From: Planctomycetota bacterium
GTDB lineage: Bacteria > Planctomycetota > Planctomycetia > Pirellulales > Lacipirellulaceae
Reading direction: 5' to 3'
NCBI GenBank assembly: GCA_039190745.1
Contig: JBCCXZ010000024.1
Coordinates: 1 to 51,753 of the forward strand
DNA: 51,753 bases
Below the pieces are notes generated by a model, which saw only the letters and a list, made by a program, of their open reading frames with translations, searched no databases and was not told the DNA's origin. The translations under genes were made by a program, and so were the position numbers. Positions within the stretch are counted from its first letter, which is position 1, and the number at the start of each line of letters is the position of its first letter. Positions 3,880-41,421 of this stretch are shown piece by piece.

Positions 3880-4118
3880 CTAGGTCGAGGCTAACCGCTC
3901 TTTGACAACCCAACACCACGCTCCCCGCAGGCAAACCCGCCTAGCGGTTGTGACCGTTCGCGCCCACAAGGCGCCCGCAGAACCTCAACGCGTTCTGACC
4001 GGATTTGAGAACGAGATACCGCAGATTTTCAGCTTGAACGGCTAATCGATCCCGACAAAACCCAACGACTTCTGCAAAGCCCCCAGGCACAAAACGCCCA
4101 GCGTTTTGTCGCCCCACT

Positions 4119-4145
4119 CCTAGCCGCCGACCTACGCGTCGGCGG
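4119..4145 (+). repeat. REP-like hairpin family B (CCTAGCCGYCGACCTACGCGTCGRCGG)
   Basis: Four copies: 4119-4145, 10605-10631, 11843-11869 (+) and 18484-18510 (-); stem covaries CCGCCGAC/GTCGGCGG vs CCGTCGAC/GTCGACGG. Confidence 0.9.
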
Positions 4146-8938: not shown

Positions 8939-9190
8939 GTGGGAATCCTTAGTTGGATCATCTTCGGCCTCATCGCGGGCGCCCTCGGCAAGTTCCTCAT
9001 GCCGGGGGACGACCCCAAGGGCTGCCTCGTCACCATCGGCCTCGGCATCCTAGGCGCCGTTGTGGGCGGCTTCATCGGCACTCAACTCGGCTTCGGCTCT
9101 GTCGAAGGCTTCGATATCCGCAGCTTTGGCGTCGCCATCGTCGGCACAATCGTCGTGCTGACGGTCTTGCGGTTCATCCGGCAGAAGTAA
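8939..9190 (+). CDS. GlsB/YeaQ/YmgE family (transglycosylase-associated) membrane protein
   Basis: 83 aa, WIIFGLIAG..LMPG..G..TI.LGILGA.VGG pattern; GTG start. Confidence 0.9.
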   Translation: MGILSWIIFGLIAGALGKFLMPGDDPKGCLVTIGLGILGAVVGGFIGTQLGFGSVEGFDIRSFGVAIVGTIVVLTVLRFIRQK

Positions 9191-9523
9191 CCGGGTAGCG
9201 TTGGCATCTTGCCAGTTCAGAACCCAAGCCGGCGCAACAGCAACAAGACGCCAGTTTCAGAAACCCCGCGGCGGTGTGTCACCTCGGTGCAGATCTGACT
9301 GCGCCGCCGCACCGACAACAAATCCTGCCCAGCGGTCGACGATCCCCCCAAGCACAAGAGCCTAAAGGGTTTACGAAGCCGGCCCGAGGTCCGGACTCGC
9401 CGCGGTATTTTTTTCGCATTTTCTTGTTCCCATTTCCCCGCCTCTCACGCTTCTACAGGCAGAGGCCAAACCGTTGGCCCCGCAAACCAGCAAAAAACGG
9501 GCTCCCCAACCGAGGACAAGAAA

Positions 9524-10177
9524 ATGACCCGCTCCACCGCCTCCAAGCTCGCCGCCATCGCACTGATCGCCACCGCCGCAGCCCCCGCGTTCGCCCAGGT
9601 GCAGGCCTACCACCACCGCAGCACCGTCTTCGGCGACCACGCCGCCGGCCTCGGAGAGCTGTACATCGGCCAGGGCCTCAACGCCCGCTACAACGCCGAG
9701 GCCTACCAAACCTTGGTCCGGGCCGAACGAGACCGTTACCTGCTCGGCCAACTTGTGCTCGACGGCTACTACCAGAAGCAAGCCCGCAAAGACAGCCAGC
9801 GGGTCGCACTCCGCGAAGAAAACCTCCGCGACCGGGCCGCCCGCGAGGGCCAAACCCAGGCCGAGGGCCTCGACGCGGTCAGCCAGATCCGCAAGGGCAC
9901 GTTCCAGTGGCCCGCCCTGCTGACCGAAGCCGAATACGCCCCCGTCCGCCAGCGGATCGAAGACCTCGTCCGCTCCTGGCCCGTCGACCTCGAAGCCGCC
10001 ACCGTCAGCCAGCGGGCCGGCCTCGTCCACGCCATCAACCAGATGCAGGACATGATCCGCGACAACGCCACCGACGCCAGCTTCACCGACCAGACCCGCG
10101 CTATGAAGGTCGCCAAGTCGCTCGGCAAGCTCCCGTACATGGAGTGGGAAGACGGCATCCGCCTCGCCAGCCGCTAG
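9524..10177 (+). CDS. Hypothetical secreted protein
   Basis: Signal peptide ending AFA-Q, host-like GC3-rich codon use, GAGG RBS-like motif upstream. Confidence 0.75.
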   Translation: MTRSTASKLAAIALIATAAAPAFAQVQAYHHRSTVFGDHAAGLGELYIGQGLNARYNAEAYQTLVRAERDRYLLGQLVLDGYYQKQARKDSQRVALREENLRDRAAREGQTQAEGLDAVSQIRKGTFQWPALLTEAEYAPVRQRIEDLVRSWPVDLEAATVSQRAGLVHAINQMQDMIRDNATDASFTDQTRAMKVAKSLGKLPYMEWEDGIRLASR

Positions 10178-10218
10178 AGAGACCGATCGCAACCGCGACC
10201 GGAAGCAGCCTCAGGACA

Positions 10219-10494
10219 CTACCGCCGCCGGAAAATCCCGCGGCGGTAGCTGCTTGCGCGGCTCTTTTGAACCGTCCGATCAAACCCGCCGCTGATCCAG
10301 ACCCCGTAGTGCCGCCGCACCGGCTCGCCGCGTGCAGCCTTCTTCTTGGCCTGATTCACCACATGCCGCCGGTGCAGATTCGTGGGCGGCCCTGTGTTGA
10401 GAGAACTCTGCCGCTGGGCGACCGCGGGGCGGACATCCGCCAATAGGAGAGCAGCAAGAGTCAGTCCAACAACCGCAAGAGAACGCTTCGTCAT
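10219..10494 (-). CDS. Small basic secreted hypothetical protein (91 aa)
   Basis: GGAGG RBS before ATG 10494; signal peptide ending AVA-Q; Arg/Lys-rich mature part. Confidence 0.55.
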   Translation of the reverse strand: MTKRSLAVVGLTLAALLLADVRPAVAQRQSSLNTGPPTNLHRRHVVNQAKKKAARGEPVRRHYGVWISGGFDRTVQKSRASSYRRGIFRRR

Positions 10495-10598
10495 CGATCG
10501 ATCCTCCGGGGGTTCCATAGCGAGCAGGCAAGCCGCTACCCCCAACCGTCTTATTGTAGACCCCCGCCACAAGAAGCCAAATCAAACAACCAAGCGGC

Positions 10599-10712
10599 TC
10601 CGTTCCTAGCCGTCGACCTACGCGTCGACGGAACCCGATACCAACCCCCAACCCCGCGAAGAAGACCACACGGATTTTCGTTGAAATTGGGCCAGCAACT
10701 CTGCTAGACAAG
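10599..10712 (+). repeat. 114-bp direct repeat, copy 1 (REP-B hairpin + TTGAAA-N18-TAGACA promoter-like end)
   Basis: 104/114 identical by hand alignment to 11837-11950. Confidence 0.92.
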
Positions 10713-10716
10713 CTTT

Positions 10717-11847
10717 ATGCCCCCGCCTCGAACTCCACCCGCTTGCGGCCAGCCCAAGCTCCACATCGTCTTACCCATTCTGACTGCGTCAGTAGGAGCG
10801 TGCCTGGCCTCCTGCGACAGCCAAGCTGTTGCAGGCTTGGTAGACGAGCGTCCTTGGGTAGAGAAATCCGCGGACGGAAGACTCTTGCTCGCCATGCTCG
10901 ACTCACCCGACCCAGATCGGTTTGAGTTACCCATTTCCAGTGACACGAGGAAGCTGTTCCCAAAAAACGGCATCTACAGAAAAGGGCCTTCTGGGTGGAA
11001 ACTCGATTGGGTCTTGCCCTACCGCCCGCCTTGCTACGGGGTCGAGTTCTCCCAAGACGGAAAAAGCGTCCTCCTCTACCGGGACGACACGACACACACT
11101 GTCAGCAACATCCCAGTGGGAGCGTTCCTAGACTTCTACCATTCGAACGGCGAGAACAGGCTGTGGCAGGAATGGGACATGACTTGGGGGTGGTTTCTAA
11201 AAGCAGCACTAAACCGTTTGCTCAACCAGCCGACCCATCTGGAATGGACAACCGCCAATCGCATTCCTTCGTCTGATGAGTTCTTGGTGAAGACAAACCA
11301 AGGCGAAGAGTTCGTGTTCGATCTTCGAACCGGCGACCTGATCCGCAGCCGCTCAACCTGGAGCCGAGCCGCGTTGTTGCTGGGAGTCGCAACACTCGCG
11401 ATGACTCTGTTCCTCTCAAGGCCCAGAGCTAGAGCAATTGAGCCTCAATCCAAGATGCATTATGGCTTTGCCGTAGGGGAACTCCTAGCAACCACGACGA
11501 TGGTCGCAATCCTCATGGTAATCGGCTCACAGTCCCTCAAGTTGCTTGGCCTTGCTTTGGCGGCCGCTTGTTCTGGAGGCCTCCTGGCCCTTCCGCTCTC
11601 ATTGACTCGAAGAGCCGCAATGCTTGGTTCCATCCTGAGCGTCTGTTACGCATCCCTGAGCCTGATCTTTTCGAGCATGATCTGCGAACCACTACTCTGG
11701 GAGCTGAAGCGTATTCATGACGGTGAGGTTCTCGGCGTGTTCCTGACAGCCATCTTCATTGGCGTACTCATCGGAGCGATCTTGGGAGGCTTGATCGCAA
11801 GAAGCAACCAGCCTATCTGCCCAGAACCTCAGGCAATCCGTTCCTAG
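10717..11847 (+). CDS. Hypothetical membrane protein (soluble N-terminal domain + about 5 C-terminal TM helices)
   Basis: 376-aa ORF with atypical AT-richer codon use; stop TAG lies inside repeat copy 2. Confidence 0.65.
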   Translation: MPPPRTPPACGQPKLHIVLPILTASVGACLASCDSQAVAGLVDERPWVEKSADGRLLLAMLDSPDPDRFELPISSDTRKLFPKNGIYRKGPSGWKLDWVLPYRPPCYGVEFSQDGKSVLLYRDDTTHTVSNIPVGAFLDFYHSNGENRLWQEWDMTWGWFLKAALNRLLNQPTHLEWTTANRIPSSDEFLVKTNQGEEFVFDLRTGDLIRSRSTWSRAALLLGVATLAMTLFLSRPRARAIEPQSKMHYGFAVGELLATTTMVAILMVIGSQSLKLLGLALAAACSGGLLALPLSLTRRAAMLGSILSVCYASLSLIFSSMICEPLLWELKRIHDGEVLGVFLTAIFIGVLIGAILGGLIARSNQPICPEPQAIRS

Positions 11848-12193
11848 CCGTCGACCTACGCGTCGACGGCCGCCAAAACCAGCCTCCAACCCCGCAAAGA
11901 AATCCACACGGATTTTCGTTGAAATTGGGCCAGCAACTCTGCTAGACAAGAGGCTGCAGACGAGAAGCAGCTCGCTACAAGGGATGGGCCATTCAGCAGC
12001 CCATCTGCGTCCATCCGCGTTCATCAACCCCGCTTCTGACCGCGAAAACTCAACACAAACGAACGCAAACTCGAAAAGTTAAGACCGGTGCGATCCCAGC
12101 AAACACCGAAGAACAAAAAGCGCACGAAAAAGACCCGCGACAAAACGCCCGACTTTTGGCGTATCGCCGCGTCTAGCTGTTTTCGTGCCCAAA
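11837..12193 (+). repeat. ~357-bp composite non-coding element; first 114 bp form direct repeat copy 2
   Basis: Colinear homology to 18151-18513 (-): REP-B, GTTGAAAWTGGGCCAG, ATCYGCGTYC repeats, TTCTGACC, AAAACTC, AACGAACG and a 58-bp 3' block with 54/58 identity. Confidence 0.88.
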
Positions 12194-12209
12194 CGACAGA
12201 AGTCGAGCG

Positions 12210-12485
12210 TCACGCCGAGAGCGTCCCCTCGAAGCCCATCGCGTGGAACGCGTCCACACGCAGCGGCTCGGTTATCTTCACCGCAGAGATCGCCTCGAAG
12301 CCCAACATGATGAACCGTGCCCCCAACGCATCGGGGTTCGACCGCTCGAACAGCACCATGTCGCCCGAAAGCAGGAAGCTCTTGAACGGGTTCGCCTCGC
12401 CGTGCGTATCCGTCACGATCCCCTTCCGGGGCACCTGCTCCGGCCAACCCTTGAAGAACTTCGTCCAGTTCGTCGTCTCCGCCAC
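12210..12485 (-). CDS. Small conserved-looking hypothetical protein (91 aa)
   Basis: GTG start with GGAGAG RBS; host-like codon use. Confidence 0.75.
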   Translation of the reverse strand: MAETTNWTKFFKGWPEQVPRKGIVTDTHGEANPFKSFLLSGDMVLFERSNPDALGARFIMLGFEAISAVKITEPLRVDAFHAMGFEGTLSA

Positions 12486-12650
12486 GGCAGCTCTCCCAAT
12501 AGCGACTCAGATCTGGCCCGCGGCCGGGCCGCCACTTAGAAGTCTAGCCCACTCCTAACCATAGGCTTGCCAAGGCCCCAAGACCCCGCCATGCTCTAGA
12601 AACGCCGGCTCGAGAAGCCATGTAATCCCAGCACCTTCGGGGAGCCACTG

Positions 12651-13013
12651 ATGGCCATCCACACCTCCTCCCAAGACGGCGTCCTCACCATCCGCCTCCT
12701 CGACGAGCGGCTCATCGACCAGGCCCAGATCCAGCGGCTCGTCGACGACGTCACCGCAGCCCTGGGCAAGAGCGAAGAAGAGAACATCGTCCTCGACTTC
12801 TCCCAGGTCCAGTTCATGGCCTCCGCCATGCTCGGCAAGCTCGTGCAGCTCAATAAAAAGAGCAAGGAGTGGAAAGCCAAGCTCAAGCTCTGCAGCATCT
12901 CGCCGGACATCTACGAGGTCTTCAAAATCACCAAACTCCACAAGGTGTTCGACATCGAGAAAGACGAGGAGGCCGCCCGCAAGGCGTTCCAGAAGCGCGG
13001 TTTGTTCCGGTAG
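12651..13013 (+). CDS. STAS-domain anti-sigma factor antagonist
   Basis: LDFSQVQFMASAMLGKL motif and ..EVFKITKL; GGAG RBS. Confidence 0.92.
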   Translation: MAIHTSSQDGVLTIRLLDERLIDQAQIQRLVDDVTAALGKSEEENIVLDFSQVQFMASAMLGKLVQLNKKSKEWKAKLKLCSISPDIYEVFKITKLHKVFDIEKDEEAARKAFQKRGLFR

Positions 13014-13102
13014 TGACGGCCCGACTAGGCCCGACAAGCAACGTACACTTGCGGCGCACCAAACCCGGAATCAACCCCGCAACACCCGACGGGCCGCAAG
13101 CC

Positions 13103-13705
13103 ATGCCCTACGCCGCAATCCTCACCGCCGCCGTCAAAGCCGCCGCGGTCGCCGTCATCTCGCTCGCCGCAGCCGTGGCCGCCGCTGAACATCCCGTTTA
13201 CCGCATCGCACCGCTTGAGCCCAGCCAAGTTGTCGAAGTACCCAAGAGCGAAATCAAAGAAGGCCTAATCTACCGCTACTACAACGAGAAGCTGGATAGA
13301 TCCGTTTGGGGCATCGCCCAAGCCGACGGCTCGTTCCGCTACGCCCTCGGCCCCGGCAGCGTCCAACCGGTCGAGCGATTCGACCTGAGACTCACCGAAG
13401 AAGAACGCTCCCGCATCGTCAACGACAACGCGCCGGGCCTAGAGGGCTACCTCGCGTCCACCGGCCGCACGCCGACGATCGTTCTCAACGACCAGCTCCG
13501 CTGGGAACTGGTGAAGACCGCCTCGATCTCAAAGGTCTACGACCTCGAAACGCACCGCCGCTGGGAATGGCATGGGAAGCGAAAGCTCTCGGTGCTCCAC
13601 AGTTCCGGAAACCGCTGGATCGCGGCGGGCGGAGACTACGCCCCGTTGGTCGACCCGCCGCACCTGCATTCGCTCTCGCCTAACCCCGCAGCCTGTTGCA
13701 ACTAG
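13103..13705 (+). CDS. Hypothetical secreted protein
   Basis: ATG 13103, Ala-rich signal peptide, directly upstream of dacB. Confidence 0.7.
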   Translation: MPYAAILTAAVKAAAVAVISLAAAVAAAEHPVYRIAPLEPSQVVEVPKSEIKEGLIYRYYNEKLDRSVWGIAQADGSFRYALGPGSVQPVERFDLRLTEEERSRIVNDNAPGLEGYLASTGRTPTIVLNDQLRWELVKTASISKVYDLETHRRWEWHGKRKLSVLHSSGNRWIAAGGDYAPLVDPPHLHSLSPNPAACCN

Positions 13706-13723
13706 CGACTCTCCCGAGCCCCA

Positions 13724-15139
13724 ATGCACCGAACCGTCCTCCCCGCGGTCGCCATCTCTCTCCTGCTATGCACCCCGGCGACCGGCCAGCCGCTCGCGGC
13801 CGGCGGCCTCCGCGAGGCGTTAACTAAGCTCGTCGACAACCATCCGACAGCGCGCCGGACAACGGTCTGCCTGAAGGTCGTTGACCTCGAGACCGGTGAG
13901 GTCCTCTACGACCGCGGCGGCGACAGGCTGCTCGTCCCAGCGTCAAACCTAAAGATCTACACCACCGCCTGCGCACTGGACCGTTTCGGGCCGGACCGCC
14001 GATTCGAAACGAAACTGCAAATCCGTGGCGAGATGGTCGCGAGCGCGCTCACCGGCGAGATCGTGCTCGTAGGCGGCGGCGACGCGATGCTCAGCACCGC
14101 CGCCCTAGGCAAACTTGCCGACTGGGTCGCCAAGGAAGCCGGCGTCCGGAAACTTGTGGGCCGCGTACGAGCCGATCAGTCGCGTTACGCCTCCCCGCTC
14201 AAAGGGCCGGGCTGGATGTGGGACGACGAGCCGGACTACTACAACATGTCCGTTACCCCGCTGATGCTGGATTTCAACGTCCTGAGGGTCCGCCTGGAAT
14301 CGTCCGCGGGCGGCAAACCAACCGCTCGCCTCGTCCCGCCGGCAAGCTACCCGCCACTGAGTTGGTCGCACCAGGCAGGGTCGGCAAACAGTTGGATCGA
14401 CCGCGAACCTTTCACCGACGCTTTTTTGCTGAGCAATCCGAGCTCGCTCGAATCGTCACTCGAAGAGCGGGTCACCATGGATGATCCGTCGCCGTGGATC
14501 GAGTCGGTATTCAAACATCAATTGCAACCCCGCGTCATCGAGATTGAACATGCGGACCACTCTAGAGTTCTACCGTTTGTGAGTGAACATTCGCGCCCTG
14601 GCGCTTCGCTCGCGGAGACCGTCAAGCACTTCAACCGCGTCAGCGAGAACGCGGTCGGCGAGGTGCTGCTCCATGAGCTGGCAATCGACGCCGGCCGGGA
14701 ACAGCCAGCGTGGTCGGCCGGCGCCTCGGTCATCAGCGATTGGCTCGTCGGAGTTGCAGGATTAGAGCGAGGATCGTTCCGGCTCGTCGACGGTTCGGGG
14801 CTCTCTCGTTACAACCTGATTTCCGCCGACTCGTCGATCCGCCTTTTGCAGTACATGCACAAGCACCCGACCAGTTCCGTTTTCTACGAAGCATTGCCGA
14901 AATACGGAGTCGAGGTAGCGGCCCCGTCGGACTCCGAAAACAAAGAAGAACGGATCGCTGCGAAGCCGGGGGGGATGTCGAGCGTGTCGACCATCTCGGG
15001 TTACGCAGACACCCTCGGCGGCCGGAGGCTGGCTTTCTCGCTGCTGACAAACGGCTACATCGGATCGAACCGTCCAGTGATCGACCTACGCGGAAAGGTT
15101 TGGCAAACACTCGTCCGCTACCGCCCCAGTGACCAGTAG
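13724..15139 (+). CDS. dacB: D-Ala-D-Ala carboxypeptidase/endopeptidase, peptidase S13 (PBP4-like)
   Basis: PASNLK (SxxK), GGGD, SEN (SxN), DGSGLSRYN, KPG at the KTG position; signal peptide. Confidence 0.92.
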   Translation: MHRTVLPAVAISLLLCTPATGQPLAAGGLREALTKLVDNHPTARRTTVCLKVVDLETGEVLYDRGGDRLLVPASNLKIYTTACALDRFGPDRRFETKLQIRGEMVASALTGEIVLVGGGDAMLSTAALGKLADWVAKEAGVRKLVGRVRADQSRYASPLKGPGWMWDDEPDYYNMSVTPLMLDFNVLRVRLESSAGGKPTARLVPPASYPPLSWSHQAGSANSWIDREPFTDAFLLSNPSSLESSLEERVTMDDPSPWIESVFKHQLQPRVIEIEHADHSRVLPFVSEHSRPGASLAETVKHFNRVSENAVGEVLLHELAIDAGREQPAWSAGASVISDWLVGVAGLERGSFRLVDGSGLSRYNLISADSSIRLLQYMHKHPTSSVFYEALPKYGVEVAAPSDSENKEERIAAKPGGMSSVSTISGYADTLGGRRLAFSLLTNGYIGSNRPVIDLRGKVWQTLVRYRPSDQ

Positions 15140-15143
15140 CACC

Positions 15144-15845
15144 ATGCGATTTCTGTTGGCCTGTTTGGCCGCCTGCTTTGCGATTTCGATGACACCGATC
15201 CGACTGGTCGCCGCCGAGCGGGAAGAGGGCACTAGCCTCCCAGAAGGCTTCGTGTTTCTGGATGTTGCGGCGCCCACGATCGAGGTGGACCTGCGGTACT
15301 TCTCGAATCGGAATTTCGTTGGTAGCCGCGTTGATGGCTACGAAGTCGATCGTTGCATTGTGACGCAGGAAGCCGCCGAGGCGCTCGGTCGCGTACAGTC
15401 CGAGCTTTCGCCGCTCGGGCTGCGGCTGCTGGTGTTCGACGCCTATCGCCCTCAGCGTGCGGTCGACCACTTCGTGCGTTGGTCTCGGGCGCCGGAAGAC
15501 GACTCCACGAAGGCCGACTATTTCCCTGACTTCGGCCGTGGGGAGTTGTTTGATTTGGGCTACATCGCCGCTAAATCGGGGCATAGCCGGGGCAGCACAG
15601 TCGATCTTACCCTCGACGCCGCCGATGGTTCGGGCGAGTTGGACATGGGCGGCCCGTTCGACTTCTTCGGCGAACGCTCCGGCCACGACTACCGCGGGGC
15701 GACCTCTCAGCAGCGTGCGAATCGCTTGCTGTTGCGCACGCTGATGGAGAAGCACCGGTTCCGGGCCTACTCGAAGGAATGGTGGCACTATACGCTGGTG
15801 GACGAGCCCTTCCCGAACACCTACTTCGATTTCCCCATCCGATGA
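15144..15845 (+). CDS. ddpX: D-Ala-D-Ala dipeptidase (M15D, VanX/DdpX family) with signal peptide
   Basis: NFVG, DAYRP, SGHSRGSTVD, DMG..FDFF and EWWHY motifs. Confidence 0.93.
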   Translation: MRFLLACLAACFAISMTPIRLVAAEREEGTSLPEGFVFLDVAAPTIEVDLRYFSNRNFVGSRVDGYEVDRCIVTQEAAEALGRVQSELSPLGLRLLVFDAYRPQRAVDHFVRWSRAPEDDSTKADYFPDFGRGELFDLGYIAAKSGHSRGSTVDLTLDAADGSGELDMGGPFDFFGERSGHDYRGATSQQRANRLLLRTLMEKHRFRAYSKEWWHYTLVDEPFPNTYFDFPIR

Positions 15846-17047
15846 ATACGCAGATGACGTTTCTCCGCAGCCAAGTTGTCTGGGTTGGTTTCTTGGCATC
15901 TTTACTCGCCTTGTGTCTGGTGAGTGACCAGGGCCAAGCCAACGACAGCGGCCCCGCGATCGCGGCGGAGCCTGAGGTTGACTCGCGATTGGTCGCCTTG
16001 GCGAAGCGGGTGGAACCGGAGTTGGCTGGTCGCGAAGCGCTGCTGTCCCATTACGTCGACTACTACCGGCGATCGATGGTGAACGACACCCGGCTGGTGG
16101 CGTTCAACGTAACGGCCTTGGCAGACGGCGACGGGGGCGTGACCCTCGGGGGTTACTGCGAGTTCGAAGAATCTCGCCAGGGGGTTGAGGGGTATTTGGC
16201 GGCGATGGGCTTCGACCGCATCGAGAACGAGATCGAAATCGTACCTTCCGCTTCCTTGGGCGAACAACGGTTCGCGGTCGTGAAGGTCGAGAGCACACTG
16301 AGCTACGCCTCGCCGGATGAAGGTGAGGTGGTGACCGACTGCCTGCTCGGGGAGCCGCTGTTTTTGCTCTCTGCGACGGCCGGGCACTTCCTGGCCCACA
16401 GCGGCGAGGGTTACCTGGGGTACATCCGGGTGGCCGACGTCGAGCGGCTGAGCGAGGCCGAGTTCACCCAGTACCTGAGCGGTCCGACGGTCGTGATGAA
16501 GCAGGACCTGGAGGACGAGGGCGTTCTGCTGCCGACCGGCGGGCGTCTGAGGTTGGTTTCGCACAGCGACGGCGGGGTAACCGCCGAGCTGCCCGGAGCC
16601 GGTGAGTTTGGTTTCGCGGATTCGTACTGCGAGATCAGCCGCGAAGCTGCGCCGTGGGCGCCGGGCGTCATTGAGGCGGCGTCGGCGATGCGGGGGACGC
16701 CCTACCTCTGGGGCGGGAAGACCGCGAAGGGGGTCGACTGCTCCGGGCTGGTGCAGGTGGCGTTTGCCGGCTCTGGGGTCAGCGTGCCGCGGGACGCGGA
16801 TCAGCAGTTCAACGTGGGCCAGCTGACGGCCACGCGTTGGTGCCGCGGCGGGATGCGGGCCGGCGACACGATGTACTTCATCAATGATTACGGCAAGATC
16901 AGCCACACGGCGATCTACCTGGGCGGCGATCGTTACTTGCACGCCCAGATGCCGGAGGTTGGGGTCAACAGTCTGGACCCAGCGGACCCTACCTACCTCG
17001 AGAATCGCGACCTGACGTTCGTGTTCGCGAAGCGGTTTCTCGACTGA
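15842..17047 (+). CDS. NlpC/P60 (C40) peptidase with BON-like and SH3-like N-terminal modules (YkfC/dipeptidyl peptidase VI-like)
   Basis: PYLWGG..GVDCSG, PRDADQQ, HTAIYLG and YLHA motifs; ATGA overlap with ddpX stop. Confidence 0.9.
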   Translation: MNTQMTFLRSQVVWVGFLASLLALCLVSDQGQANDSGPAIAAEPEVDSRLVALAKRVEPELAGREALLSHYVDYYRRSMVNDTRLVAFNVTALADGDGGVTLGGYCEFEESRQGVEGYLAAMGFDRIENEIEIVPSASLGEQRFAVVKVESTLSYASPDEGEVVTDCLLGEPLFLLSATAGHFLAHSGEGYLGYIRVADVERLSEAEFTQYLSGPTVVMKQDLEDEGVLLPTGGRLRLVSHSDGGVTAELPGAGEFGFADSYCEISREAAPWAPGVIEAASAMRGTPYLWGGKTAKGVDCSGLVQVAFAGSGVSVPRDADQQFNVGQLTATRWCRGGMRAGDTMYFINDYGKISHTAIYLGGDRYLHAQMPEVGVNSLDPADPTYLENRDLTFVFAKRFLD

Positions 17048-17152
17048 CTTCCGGGCCACGGATCGGCCTTCTTGCTGCCCGTCCGGCCTCTGCCGGGCGT
17101 GGTCTTCCTGCCTTTGCTCTTTGAGCTCCCACCTTGTGATTGGAAGGATCTT

Positions 17153-18091
17153 ATGTGTGCTTTGGATTTCCCCGGTCGGCTGGTTAGCTGGTCGCTGATG
17201 TTGTGTTGTGTGTTCGTTGCCCCGGCCCGCGGCGAGGCGGGGCCGGACGCGGTTGAGGTTTCCGCGATTGAGGTTCCTGCGTCTGACCCGGCGACCGTCG
17301 AAGTCGGCGTGGTGCGTTGGTTGACTTCGTACACCGAGGCCTACGCCGCGGCTCAAGAATCCCGGCAGATGCTGTTGATTAACTTTGTGCCGCTGGGCGA
17401 GAGCTCGCAGCAGAGTTCTTTGGAGGCGAAGATCGCTGCGGATGAGTCGCTGCGTGAGCGGCTCGGCGGGTTCACGCTGTTGCGGTTGCAGGACGAGACG
17501 CCCGGCGAAGGCCCGGCTTCGCGGCTGCTGGGCCACGCGGCGTTCTCGCCGATGAAGGGCGACTCGGGCGTCGCGGTGTTGGACCTGGCCAGCCAAGGCG
17601 AGGAGTACTCCGGGCGGGTCGTGAGTGCTTTCCCGTACCGCTCGGGGAAGTACTACCGGTGGCAGTGCGATTACCTGCCGGTGATCCTGGGGCTGCCGCA
17701 GGGGACGCTCTCGCAGCGGACGATGGTGTGGGCCGTGCGGGTGCACCCGGAACGTCCCGCGAGCACGGGCGGCGAGATGCACCCGGGGATCGCGGACGCG
17801 GCGGGGCGGCACTCGGCTTACCAGGCGAGCATCCGGAACCAGGGGCACCACAACTGGGGCCGGCGTTCGGGTGAGATTCAGTCGATGGCCGGGACGTTCA
17901 AGGCCGTGGAGGTCGTGGCGGAGAGCTGGCCGAACCAGGACTTGATCGACTCGTGCCTGGACTGCGTGGCGAGCTGGCGGCACTCGTCGGGCCATTGGGG
18001 CGCGGTCCGCAGCCCGCACCGGCTGTACGGCTACGACATCCGCCGGGGGAGCAACGGGATCTGGTACGGGACGGGGATCTTTGCGGACTGA
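17153..18091 (+). CDS. Secreted protein: thioredoxin-like N-domain (no CxxC) + CAP/SCP-like C-domain
   Basis: WLTSY..A...A....MLLINF; C-terminal A..HS..Q..GHH, EVVAE, W..S.GH and G.WY pattern. Confidence 0.7.
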   Translation: MCALDFPGRLVSWSLMLCCVFVAPARGEAGPDAVEVSAIEVPASDPATVEVGVVRWLTSYTEAYAAAQESRQMLLINFVPLGESSQQSSLEAKIAADESLRERLGGFTLLRLQDETPGEGPASRLLGHAAFSPMKGDSGVAVLDLASQGEEYSGRVVSAFPYRSGKYYRWQCDYLPVILGLPQGTLSQRTMVWAVRVHPERPASTGGEMHPGIADAAGRHSAYQASIRNQGHHNWGRRSGEIQSMAGTFKAVEVVAESWPNQDLIDSCLDCVASWRHSSGHWGAVRSPHRLYGYDIRRGSNGIWYGTGIFAD

Positions 18092-18150
18092 GCCCCTAAC
18101 TGAGCCCCCAACTGGGCCCGTCGGCTGAGGTCGGTGGGCCTGGTTTTGTC

Positions 18151-18513
18151 TTTGGGCACGAAAACGGGTACACGCGGCGATACGCCAAAAGTCGGGCGTA
18201 TTGTCGCGTGTTTTTTGTTGGGGCTCCTTGTTTCTTAGGGCGGGCCGGCTTGGCATGGGACTAAATGGGGGTGACTTTACGTTCGTTGTTGGCGAGTTTT
18301 TGGGGTCAGAAAGGAAACAGCCACAGATGGACGCGGATGAACGCTGATGACGGAAGAATCATAGGGCGGGGGACTCTGAAGTAAGACCATAATAGTGTTC
18401 TCTTGTATACTCCATGGACTGGCCCATTTTCAACGGAAAAGTGCTTCGCAGAGCGGGCGGCGCAGCGCGTATCGGCGAGGCAGACGCCGACGCGTAGGTC
18501 GGCGGCTAGGAAC
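18151..18513 (-). repeat. Second full copy of the composite non-coding element
   Basis: Reverse complement aligns colinearly with 11837-12193; lies between convergent genes. Confidence 0.88.
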
Positions 18514-18554
18514 TTTTTGGAGGATCGGAACGCGTCGAAGAGAGGTCGCTGAGG

Positions 18555-19649
18555 CTATTTGCCGGGGGCGGGGCGGGACCTTGCGATGAGTGCTTCGGCG
18601 TCGGCGGCGGCCCGGGTGTTTGGGTGGCGGTCGATGACGCGGCGGAGGCGGGTGACGGCCTTCGCTTGCTTCCGCGGGTCGGGGTTGCTGAGGAGGGGCT
18701 GGGCGGCGTCGACGACCTTGCGGGCGGTGACCTCGCTGGCGACGGCGGGCAATTTCTGGAGCTTCTCCAATTGTTCGGCCTCTGCCTGCGGCAGCTTGTG
18801 GGGCGCGAACCGGTTGGAGACGGACTCGAGCGCGAGGTAGCGGCCGTAGTCGTCTGTCTCGCTGAGCGGCCGGGTCTGCCGGGCGATGCTGGCCCGCATC
18901 TTGTGCTCGACGAATTGCTGCATGTAGCCGGCGGTCTTCTTGAGGCCCTTGGAATCGGACTTCAGGCCGGAACGGATGGCCGGCGCCGCGGAGAGGTAGT
19001 CGCCGAATTCGAGTCGGCGGACGACGGGTCGGAACTCTTCGGGGAAGCGGTCGTGCTCGAACTTCCACGCGGCTCCCTTGGCGGCGTGCTCGACGGTCTT
19101 GGGGATGTCGTTCCACCACCCCCAGGTGTAGGAACCGTCTGGTTGGACGACGCGGACGTCGACGATGCTGTTGAGGTTGATGGAGACGTCGCCGCTGGCG
19201 GCCTCGAACGAACGGTCTTCGTCGACGATGACGGGCCAGTCGACTTTGTTCTTGCGGACGTAGCTGCGGACATCGGCGCGGCTGCGTCCTGAGATGACGC
19301 CGACAAACAAGACGGGGTCTTCGGCGTGCTCCTCGACCGACTCCATAATGCCGGGCCACTTCGAGGCGCAGACGGGGCAGCTCTCTTCGTAGTACCAGAA
19401 GACGATCCCCTTACCCTGTGCGTCTTCGTAGGTGAGCGGGCTGCTGTTGAGCCACTGGTAGCCGTTGTCGGGGAGGGCGGGCGGCGTGCTGGGGAGTTCG
19501 ATGGCGGAGGCGAGCGGGGCAACCAGCAAGAGCCATACCGAGGCAGCTTCGGCCAGCGGCACTCGGAACGCGGTGGGACGGGCGGGTCGCTCGGATCGAC
19601 TGGATGAGGTCTGGCGGGTTTGTGCCCGCGGTCGGTCGCTGTGTGCCAT
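18555..19649 (-). CDS. TlpA/redoxin-like thioredoxin-fold protein with helical C-terminal extension
   Basis: WLNS.PL, CPVC (CxxC) and WPVIVD motifs; start uncertain. Confidence 0.8.
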   Translation of the reverse strand: MAHSDRPRAQTRQTSSSRSERPARPTAFRVPLAEAASVWLLLVAPLASAIELPSTPPALPDNGYQWLNSSPLTYEDAQGKGIVFWYYEESCPVCASKWPGIMESVEEHAEDPVLFVGVISGRSRADVRSYVRKNKVDWPVIVDEDRSFEAASGDVSINLNSIVDVRVVQPDGSYTWGWWNDIPKTVEHAAKGAAWKFEHDRFPEEFRPVVRRLEFGDYLSAAPAIRSGLKSDSKGLKKTAGYMQQFVEHKMRASIARQTRPLSETDDYGRYLALESVSNRFAPHKLPQAEAEQLEKLQKLPAVASEVTARKVVDAAQPLLSNPDPRKQAKAVTRLRRVIDRHPNTRAAADAEALIARSRPAPGK

Positions 19650-39910: not shown

Positions 39911-39994
39911 GCCGGAGTGGCGGAATTGGCAGACGCGCTGGATTCAAAATCCAGTGAGGGCAACCTCGTGTGGGTTCGAGTCCCACCTCCGGTA
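39911..39994 (+). tRNA. tRNA-Leu (CAA)
   Basis: GCCGGAG/CTCCGGT acceptor stem, CTGGA-TTCAAAA-TCCAG anticodon arm, long variable arm, GTTCGAGTCC T-loop; CCA not encoded. Confidence 0.97.
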
Positions 39995-40155
39995 CTCTTA
40001 TCCAGCAACGACTTACGGCAAACGGCCGAAGGTCGGCCTCAAGCACGATCTCGCTTCTTGGGGCATTCTTGGGGTGCTATTGGGATCGCACGGCGGTCGC
40101 GTTGCTGTCCTCACGAGGTTGAGGTTCTTAGGCTCGATCCCTGGAGAACCTTTCG

Positions 40156-41421
40156 ATGCCCTGGCTCGAAAAAACCCCACAAGGCCGCTACCACGTCGGC
40201 TTCCGCTTCGGCGGCTTGAAGTACAAGAAGGCGCTCCGTACGCGTGACGAGCGGACCGCGAATGCCCGCGTACAGCGCCTAGACGAAAACCTAAGGCTGC
40301 TAGAAGGCGGCCTGCTCACGATGCCGGCCAACGCCGACGTAGCGGCATTCCTCCTCTCGGATGGAAAGCTAGATGGAACAAAACCGAACAAGCCTAAACG
40401 CAAGCTGCGTACGCTTGGCAAGCTCTCAACCGCTTTCTTGGCTTCCATCCCAGAGGGGGCCTTAGAAGAGAGTACGATCAATGGCATGCGTACGCACCTA
40501 AAGCACCTGCGTCGCGTGCTGGGTGCTTCGTTTTCCTTGCCGGAGGCCAGTCTTGAAGACCTTCAGAGCTACGTCGAGTCGCGTGGCAAGGATAACGGGA
40601 TCCGAGGCAAGCGGCTCAGCCCTTCCACCATTAAGAAAGAGCTGACGACGCTGCGAACGCTTTGGAACTGGGCCAAGGAAGCCGGGCACTTGTCCGGGCA
40701 GTTCCCTTCCAGGGGGCTCCGCTATCCGAAGACACACGAGAAGCCTCCCTTTCAGACGCTGGCGCAGATCGAACAGCGGATTGCTAGGGGTCACCTCAGC
40801 GAGCGCGAACAGGACGAGCTTTGGGGAGCATTGTTCCTGACGACTCACGAACTCTTCGAGTTGCTCAGGCACGTCAAGGCGACATCTTCGAACGACTTCC
40901 TCTACCCGATGTTCGTGTTAGCGGCCCATACCGGCGCCAGGAGAAGCGAAATCCTGCGTTCACGCCTAGACGACATCGACTTCGCTTCTGGCGTCATCAC
41001 GATCCGCGAGAAGAAACGCGTTCAGGGGTCCACAACAACCCGCTCATCGCCACTTTCACCGCTCCTGAAGAGTGTCCTTAGCGACTACATGCCGCTGCAT
41101 CCTGGCGGAAAGTACACCTTCATGGCGCCGCCTTTCATCGAGCGATCAAAGCGGAGGACCGGAACGCCTAGCCGGATCACACGGGACCAAGCTCACGATT
41201 ATTTCAAACGGGCTGTTAGGGGGACTAGTTGGTCCAAAGCGCGAGGCTGGCACGTATTTCGCCACTCTTTCTGCTCCAACTGCGCACCCACTGGAATCGA
41301 CCAAAGAGTTATCAACGCCTAGGTAGGCCATCAGACGGAAGAAATGGTTAAGCGTTACCGCCACCTCATTCCCGACCAACAACAGAAAGCAATCACTGAA
41401 GCGTTCCCGTCGGGCCTGTAG
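40156..41421 (+). pseudogene. Tyrosine recombinase/integrase interrupted by in-frame TAG at 41320-41322
   Basis: TGARRSE and HVFRHSF precede the stop; the frame continues VGHQTEEMVKRYRHL (catalytic H and Y) to TAG 41419-41421. Confidence 0.9.

Follow-up and report, generated by a model that had tools for sequence, protein, structure and literature searches.

The stretch of DNA analysed here, contig JBCCXZ010000024.1 of a planctomycete of the family Lacipirellulaceae (51,753 nt, in the following called the window), contains a direct repeat pair of 114 bp that encloses a single gene, referred to as the cargo. Each repeat copy is composed of a repetitive extragenic palindrome (REP), a variable spacer and a promoter-like motif, P (Table 1). 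We conclude that the locus is likely a fixed scar with the geometry of an insertion with long target duplication, here with a cargo other than restriction-modification (RM) genes, and not an integron-like cassette system.

The genome holding the window (G000), planctomycete also by its homologues, is an assembly of 125 contigs with a GC content of 0.649; its contigs carry C-numbers. It was compared with G001, the sole congener among 40 relatives searched (92% complete; its own C-numbered contigs are marked as such), and with G010, a genome of another genus. L-numbers denote fetched genomic loci.

Alignment of the two copies gave 104 identical positions out of 114. All mismatches are central (repeat positions 34, 35, 36, 39, 41, 46, 49, 60, 66 and 67), so that the first 33 and the last 47 nt are identical, as the initial annotation had stated, and the spacer agrees at 24 of its 34 nt. 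The self-repeat scores 161 bits compared to a maximum of 35.6 bits over 20 base-shuffles of the contig. As a whole the 114 bp are unique in the genome, with REP and P as multicopy parts. The next best match is the G001 orthologue with 85/114, and the median over 126 P units is 65/114. By their sequence the two copies are a locus-specific pair, and independent insertions of a high-copy repeat, named as an alternative at the outset, are not borne out by these values. The left edge of the repeat coincides with the left edge of the REP family consensus. The identical ends mark no crossover point, since REP and P are conserved regardless: in the congener, too, 46 of the final 47 nt are the same.

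The only open reading frame (ORF) between the copies encodes 376 amino acids and is AT-richer than the genome, with a GC content of 0.561 (GC3 0.65). Its ATG lies 6 nt past the TAGACA (10705–10710) of the first copy, its TAG stop (11845–11847) lies inside a CTAG of the second, and CTAG occurs near both ends of each copy; all of these features had been described before and were verified in the sequence. Among ATG, GTG and TTG, the ATG at 10717 is the only start that retains the N-terminal hydrophobic segment of the homologues. This segment is predicted to be followed by a partial beta-propeller-like domain and about five C-terminal membrane helices. The protein gave no match in Pfam, NCBIfam or PHROG, only partial beta-propeller matches in Foldseek (TM to query 0.15–0.25), matches below threshold only in an Atlas search, and nothing other than itself in a word-index search. 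Including the cargo, 46 homologues were found among cluster representatives; the family is a planctomycete one with patchy spread, occurring in 18 of 301 genomes of the order. No paralogue was found in G000. From the low GC content, the missing paralogue and the patchy spread we infer that the cargo is an insert gained from outside.

The empty single-repeat site that had been predicted for a sister species was found in G001. Its genome aligns to 9300–10712 and resumes at 11900, the two alignments overlapping by about 50 nt, and the orthologous site (C3:1632202–1632252 of G001) holds a single repeat copy, whose REP is worn. A protein search at E ≤ 1 did not detect the cargo in this 92% complete genome. 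With two genomes compared, the direction, gain as opposed to loss, is deduced and not observed. A public marine-metagenome run (X1), the only run with the window stretch and possibly its source sample, holds contigs that cover 9500–10712, 10683–11853 and 12143–13000 at depths of 7.15, 7.77 and 7.39; none of the pieces listed spans the whole stretch. Both cargo junctions are included at equal depth and an assembly artefact was therefore rejected, although X1, as maybe the same sample, is not independent.

Table 1. Features of the locus and of related loci. Positions are those of the window unless a contig or locus is named.
Feature	Position	Strand	Remark
Repeat copy 1, 114 bp	10599..10712	+	REP, 34-nt variable spacer and P, ahead of cargo; single at the orthologous site of G001
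REP hairpin of copy 1	10604..10631	+	CTAG foot at 10606–10609
Predicted promoter P1	10681..10710	+	-35 TTGAAA, 18-nt spacer, TG-extended -10 TAGACA
Cargo gene, 376 aa	10717..11847	+	predicted membrane protein, predicted leaderless
Repeat copy 2, 114 bp	11837..11950	+	runs on into the resident element, as in G001
REP of copy 2	11842..11869	+	its CTAG supplies the cargo stop
P2	11919..11948	+	promoter-like motif of copy 2
Box1, fixed spacer and box2 of the element headed by P2	12036..12205	+	dispersed non-coding element
Divergent upstream ORF	10219..10572	-	left flank, common to G001; true start uncertain
Convergent downstream gene	12210..12485	-	right flank, common to G001
Second element with REP, P, box1 and box2	18135..18511	-	no duplication
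Gene-end duplications	C6 235 bp; C23 84 bp (dnaA); C56 61 bp; L061 157 + 172 bp; L085 117 + 100 bp
Repeats of ~140 bp	L142:19–170, 1625–1779, 2531–2671; L144:547–684, 1286–1434, 2192–2340

P elements and their upstream DNA

The REP of the locus is a hairpin of 28 nt with an 8-bp stem and a CTAG, ATAG or GTAG foot; when up to 6 of the 28 positions may differ, G000 has 38 copies of it. As a short palindrome with an unpaired tetranucleotide foot and many intergenic copies it belongs to the GTAG type. According to PMC3733652, REPs of this type often give a neighbouring gene its TAG stop, as is the case here. Unlike in the system described there, the REP makes up only a quarter of the repeat, and there is no sign that a REP-associated tyrosine transposase (RAYT) moved the cargo gene. 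The RAYT family search gave no match in G000 and two over the cut-off in G001. One gene on C11 matches Y1_Tnp at E 5e-4, below the cut-off; it is flanked by copies of a related REP, with a passenger gene alongside.

The matrix of P, whose spacer includes a conserved word, scores at 76 positions in G000, corresponding to about 67 distinct sites, and at 1 in the reversed genome. A strict sigma-70 scan misses the motif; its shape and position point to a promoter. A further promoter-like site is located at 10580–10553 on the minus strand, near the divergent upstream ORF. P usually heads a dispersed non-coding element in the order P, variable REP-laden linker, box1, fixed spacer and box2, and the unit of P with box1 and box2 is called a box element here. 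A pattern search gave 45 copies of box2 for G000, 52 for G001 and none for the 59 other genomes; a profile gave weak matches in 5 of these 59. Most box elements occupy the same place in G000 and G001. Rfam over 9000–19500 (E ≤ 1) gave no match for box1-box2, and consensus folding of 97 box rows gave a hairpin of 3–4 bp only, without covariation. A protein-coding relic was rejected on the grounds of absent codon periodicity and stops in all frames.

A total of 97 box elements were examined for duplication of P, up to 9 kb upstream in G000 and about 5–7 kb in the fetched G001 stretches. Cargo between two copies of P (P-cargo-P) was found in three of them, so that the expectation of other cargo between such promoters was confirmed by two further units. 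Besides the 114 bp of the window locus these are C43, with a 57-bp repeat (96%) around an ATP-binding cassette (ABC) operon, and L055, with a 45-bp repeat (91%) around a leucine-rich-repeat protein gene; the orthologue of L055 has one P and different upstream DNA. L056 was left out since its second P is of another subtype, and the C9 unit has no placement in G001. The cargo lies on the strand of P in all three units. Their left ends differ, and two of the three lack a REP. On the right, similarity is lost in all three within about 4 nt, around the 3' edge of the -10 hexamer; over the 20 nt beyond it the copies match at 0.15, 0.40 and 0.30, unrelated copies at 0.28 and 27 orthologous pairs at 0.61.

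The 1 kb upstream of the G001 elements is unshared with G000 in 28 of 52 cases compared to 11 of 52 for the 1 kb downstream (discordant 19:2, p = 2e-4), both counts possibly being inflated by the 125-contig assembly of G000. The upstream DNA is also lower in GC in both genomes. Judged from these comparisons, gene gain and loss form a one-sided hotspot in the DNA that precedes P elements. Cargoes in this variable DNA and in the gene-end inserts described below include NACHT, SUKH, Bro-N, Fic, ParE-like, Shedu and methyltransferase genes.

Duplicated gene ends

Tight flanking repeats were present at one of 19 other homologue loci of the cargo, the top-scoring L121 in G010. There, copies of 101 bp (93% identity) of the 3' segment of an M48 peptidase gene flank the cargo homologue, whose stop lies inside copy 2. 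In three of the four G010 congeners searched the peptidase end occurs once and is followed by other DNA. Copy 2 is interrupted by a multicopy sequence, the ORF start of which resembles what we take to be an IS3 transposase. Among 11 further homologue loci, L148 is L121 again, L142, L144 and L146 contain one shorter homologue, and L149 has a 78% pair on a hairpin.

This shorter homologue of the cargo has 237 codons and is found, in a different organism, in arrays of ~140-bp repeats of two types (L142, L143, L144 and L146). The repeats have complementary attC-like ends and an internal promoter-like pair, and the neighbouring genes vary by contig as in shuffled cassette arrays. Folding of the repeats of the L142 group gave no single long hairpin.

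In G000 and G001, unrelated genes have had their 3' ends duplicated by inserts of about 0.8–3.5 kb (C6, C23, C56, L061, L085 and L194), and for the first five of these targets the sister genome holds a single copy. The 3' end of dnaA was hit independently in both species, over 316 bp in G001 (L194, C1:309409–311343) and over 84 bp in G000 (C23:10653–14201), the cargo of the latter being a 1050-aa NACHT protein. Tandem accretion is seen at L061, whose target is presumably a deaminase-like gene, and at L085: in both, a single gene is followed by two successive inserts, and a new copy of its 3' end comes after each of them. The starting points of the repeats differ at one and the same target (157 vs 172 bp at L061, 100 vs 117 bp at L085), which, as read from the sequences, does not resemble a fixed att core. 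The 11 long pairs measured range from 86 to 96% identity, and no pair is identical.

The coding repeats allow a comparison of two origins. For a copied target that subsequently decayed, about 0.41 of the differences and about 0.26 (0.256) of those private to the displaced copy are expected to be synonymous. Over eight coding pairs, 62 of 99 differences were synonymous (p = 9e-6 against 0.41), and in the seven pairs with an outgroup the displaced copy had 49 differences of its own, 24 of them synonymous (p = 4e-4; p = 0.015 with a neutral share of 0.33). The clearest cases are L121 with 7/7 and L085a with 8/8 synonymous differences. The count leaves out L085b (gapped), C40 (non-coding) and C10, C20, C29, C45 and C76 (paralogues or within-gene repeats). 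Two L093 pairs are C-termini of paralogues and were set aside after inspection; the count with them is given below. At C6 the C-terminal tail of the G001 type is retained in the distal copy and the working copy has another one (identity 0.84 vs 0.56 over 50 nt), a tail exchange that is predicted by a crossover with a donor allele. Because the coding copies differ mostly at synonymous sites, the coding repeats likely arrive as a donor allele via one homologous crossover.

Origin of the repeat pair

For the window locus we consider it moderately probable that the gene is an insert whose arrival duplicated 114 bp of the target, the additional copy being a donor relative's REP-plus-promoter copy brought in by a single homologous crossover. 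An illegitimate junction would first close a donor fragment, carrying the cargo and a short homologous arm, into a circle or attach its free end. One RecA-type crossover within the arm would then yield the order copy 1, cargo, copy 2, and the duplication would leave cargo and resident element each with a promoter, so that the event would be kept. A dedicated recombinase or att site would not be required. The one-sided hotspot of gain and loss on their upstream side would make P elements frequent targets. Across the non-RM cases of this genus the two copies resemble two working alleles, which favours such a donor-arm crossover. The Campbell-type geometry proposed in the initial annotation, if one copy is taken to come from the donor, agrees with the synonymous bias and polarity of the coding repeats of this genus.

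Precedents exist for the individual steps. Single-crossover insertion-duplication is reported to work in one planctomycete with a 1.3-kb arm and no foreign recombinase (PMC11958385), anchored illegitimate joining was proposed for the displacement arrays of the Vibrio type VI secretion system and of Rhs (PMC5361080), and transformation is described as able to make duplications via short repeats (PMC3784515). The systems of the first two reports, as presented there, share with the present loci the combination of a homologous anchor and a non-homologous junction, the displacement of the resident downstream part and the formation of arrays by repeated events (L061, L085). The loci of this genus differ in being natural, with arms of only 45–316 bp, a multitude of unrelated targets and cargoes and no toxin-immunity logic, and in being known from sequence.

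Several observations weigh against the donor-arm crossover. The donor-allele reading of the non-coding repeat in the window is carried over by analogy from the coding cases, and these are not uniform: C56 has 1/6 and C23 3/6 (neutral) synonymous differences, the polarity is weak at C23 (0.34 vs 0.20) and absent at C56, and L061a and L061b share one intact copy. When the two L093 pairs are included, the synonymous share falls to 69/134 (p = 0.008) and that of the displaced copy to 28/75 (p = 0.017; p = 0.25 against 0.33). Arms of 45–114 bp at 91–96% identity are short for RecA. As for a circle-closing agent, Ku was found in G010 and not in G000 or G001. The X1 contigs gave neither a junction of a 1238-bp circle nor excess depth, and contigs drop rare forms. 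The ABC operon of C43 also occurs in G001, 4.3 kb off and without P, so that this unit is a local move and not a foreign capture. Finally, many inserts upstream of P came without duplication (L054, L060, L063, L081, L089).

A true target duplication, in which staggered breaks or a replication template switch about 114 nt apart would have produced identical copies that diverged later, is unlikely but the strongest of the alternatives. With a repeat pair, an empty site and a one-ORF insert of 1238 bp, the locus agrees in geometry with insertion with long target duplication as described by Furuta, Abe and Kobayashi in 2010 (PMC2853133), i.e., repeats above 30 bp, an insert below 20 kb and no mobile element; a true target duplication was the original interpretation of that class. 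The long, variable and imperfect repeats that occur once at the empty site agree as well. In addition, the mismatches in the window are confined to the unconstrained spacer, as drift under selection for REP and promoter would give, and in C56 and part of L194 drift has altered the protein encoded by the displaced copy. On the other hand, the differences at L121 and L085a are exclusively synonymous, the working copy at C6 carries a tail unlike that of the sister species, and not one of the long pairs has remained identical. PMC2853133 ties this class to restriction enzymes and proposes breaks made by the cargo as the cause, which cannot apply here as the window cargo is not an RM gene; the target here is moreover a multicopy promoter-like element, and the coding cases indicate a donor allele. 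Insertion with long target duplication has so far been a pattern without a tested mechanism, and the genus offers many non-RM cases with empty sites. Our search of the literature on integrase-free direct-repeat systems and minimal mobile elements, in which the P-box element was not searched by name, gave nothing closer than this class.

The breaks at the -10 edge could also reflect terminase-guided delivery, which we regard as a rather improbable addition to, and compatible with, the donor-arm crossover. P and the box arrays would serve as pseudo-pac sites for an orphan small-terminase-like protein and a helper phage; upstream DNA would be packaged, the fragments would end at the -10 edge of P, and the same single crossover would follow. 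All three P-cargo-P units break at that edge, and the hotspot is one-sided. Furthermore, P heads a lone 169-aa gene at C80:12946–13538 (L192:1947–2539) that matches the small terminase phrog_4102 at E 1.4e-15 and is 95% identical in G001. Homologues of this gene were found in 53 of 61 family genomes, one of which has as many as 11 copies. Of 30 such loci, 15 are preceded by P, compared to 0 of 30 control windows. In the islands of the Staphylococcus aureus pathogenicity island (SaPI) type, pseudo-pac sites are described to direct one-way packaging of host genes (PMC6687093). The lone small-terminase-like gene, the numerous copies of a linked sequence in the chromosome and the one-sided effect on neighbouring accessory genes resemble that system as described, whereas no island or helper phage was identified here and the link consists in the shared promoter motif. 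There are only three junctions, and selection for expressed cargo would also favour a junction directly downstream of a promoter. Our model did not recover the box array at the terminase-like genes (best E 0.0014, most above 0.02), a search for the one large terminase family PF03237 gave no match in G000, G001 or G010, and a six-frame search with a short terminase-type peptide motif gave nothing real. The gene-end duplications L121 and C56 have no known P element nearby.

Should delivery of this kind operate, which we doubt at present, the roughly 67 P sites, each a promoter with a spaced array, would be landing and loading sites served by a domesticated small terminase; upstream DNA, cut at the -10 edge and packaged, would reach relatives and cross in at the corresponding promoter, amounting to an integrase-free, transduction-fed capture of genes. 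It is equally doubtful, though conceivable on the same grounds, that each new gene arrives with a working promoter while the resident element is pushed back. New here are the breaks at the -10 edge in three P-cargo-P units, the 19:2 hotspot and the position of P ahead of an orphan small-terminase-like gene; together with the dispersed promoter family they form the part that could be new biology.

The integron-like, attC-free cassette system of the initial annotation, with the 114-bp repeat as the site of a dedicated enzyme (a tyrosine recombinase, or a RAYT acting at the REP), is improbable, and its fixed-site version is largely refuted. Integron cassettes are defined by IntI, attI and attC. 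Similar to these, a promoterless single ORF stands behind a promoter with one repeat per gene. Empty and filled sites exist, three P-cargo-P units have their cargo always on the P strand, and the left edge of the repeat is that of the REP consensus. The weak RAYT-like gene with its related flanking REPs on C11 and the shorter cargo homologue in arrays with attC-like ends (L142, L144, L146) could be taken in the same sense. However, the duplicated stretch varies in length (45, 57 and 114 bp at P, 61–316 bp at gene ends), the P repeats share no fixed left end and mostly lack the REP, no other place has the complete 114 bp, and in G010 a member of the cargo's own gene family is flanked by copies of something unrelated, the 3' end of a peptidase gene. 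Unlike in integrons, the promoter itself is duplicated. The best match to the integron integrase TIGR02249 in G000, G001 and G010 (92–97% complete) reached 80 bits compared to a cut-off of 265, which no control genome passed either. Neither attC ends nor a single long hairpin were found in the 114-bp repeat by inspection and folding, done without an attC covariance model. A loose pattern for attC stubs at the insert ends matched 4 of 11 junctions and was discarded as uninformative. Tyrosine recombinases gave 10 matches in G000 and 7 in G001, and few elements have one close by; that of the window (40834–41367) contains one internal TAG and is 29 kb from the repeat pair.

That there was no mobility event of its own, two high-copy repeats having landed independently on either side of a resident gene or a larger tandem duplication having decayed with loss in the sister, is very improbable. 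In its favour, both REP and P exist in many copies, a tandem duplication with partial loss would account for the C43 unit, and recombination between the copies would also yield the G001 state. Against it, the spacers of the two copies agree at 24 of 34 nt, the whole unit has no close match elsewhere, and the cargo is low in GC, patchy and without a paralogue in G000.

Further elements

A second element family with about 20 copies in G000 consists of P followed by another spaced array (window 4050–4145, C8:22020, C9:33353, C16:2237, C45:23172 and others). The word that follows P in this family is presumably boxA-like. In G001, a subfamily with one P variant sits in species-specific DNA (L056, L064, L076, L080, L083, L090); the copy at L080 lies 283 bp from a tRNA end and that at L090 576 bp ahead of an integrase-like gene. 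G001 has a complete element with an accompanying 213-codon gene (L058, C1:1472463), both missing at C34:6059–6121 of G000, with no visible duplication.

Some copies of P carry TGTAC/GAACA-like words over the -10 region (window 18439 on the minus strand, C12:64416, C18:20940). Similar words precede a gene in G000 (C34:6120–6200) that we assume from its first residues to be dinB-like. These words are possibly an SOS operator, a reading for which a literature search yielded nothing of use; the P of the repeat studied here is without them.

The window further contains a tRNA-Leu followed by the tyrosine recombinase with the internal TAG (39911–41367), likely a decaying island unrelated to the repeat pair. 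Direct copies of other REP families flank units at C11:12490–14523, C89:7616–9066, C37:20976–21631 and C22:10788–12051, and for the C89 unit an empty single-REP site was found in G001. At C40:27362–32399, a non-coding repeat of 189 bp (86%) surrounds 4.7 kb with three secreted-looking ORFs.

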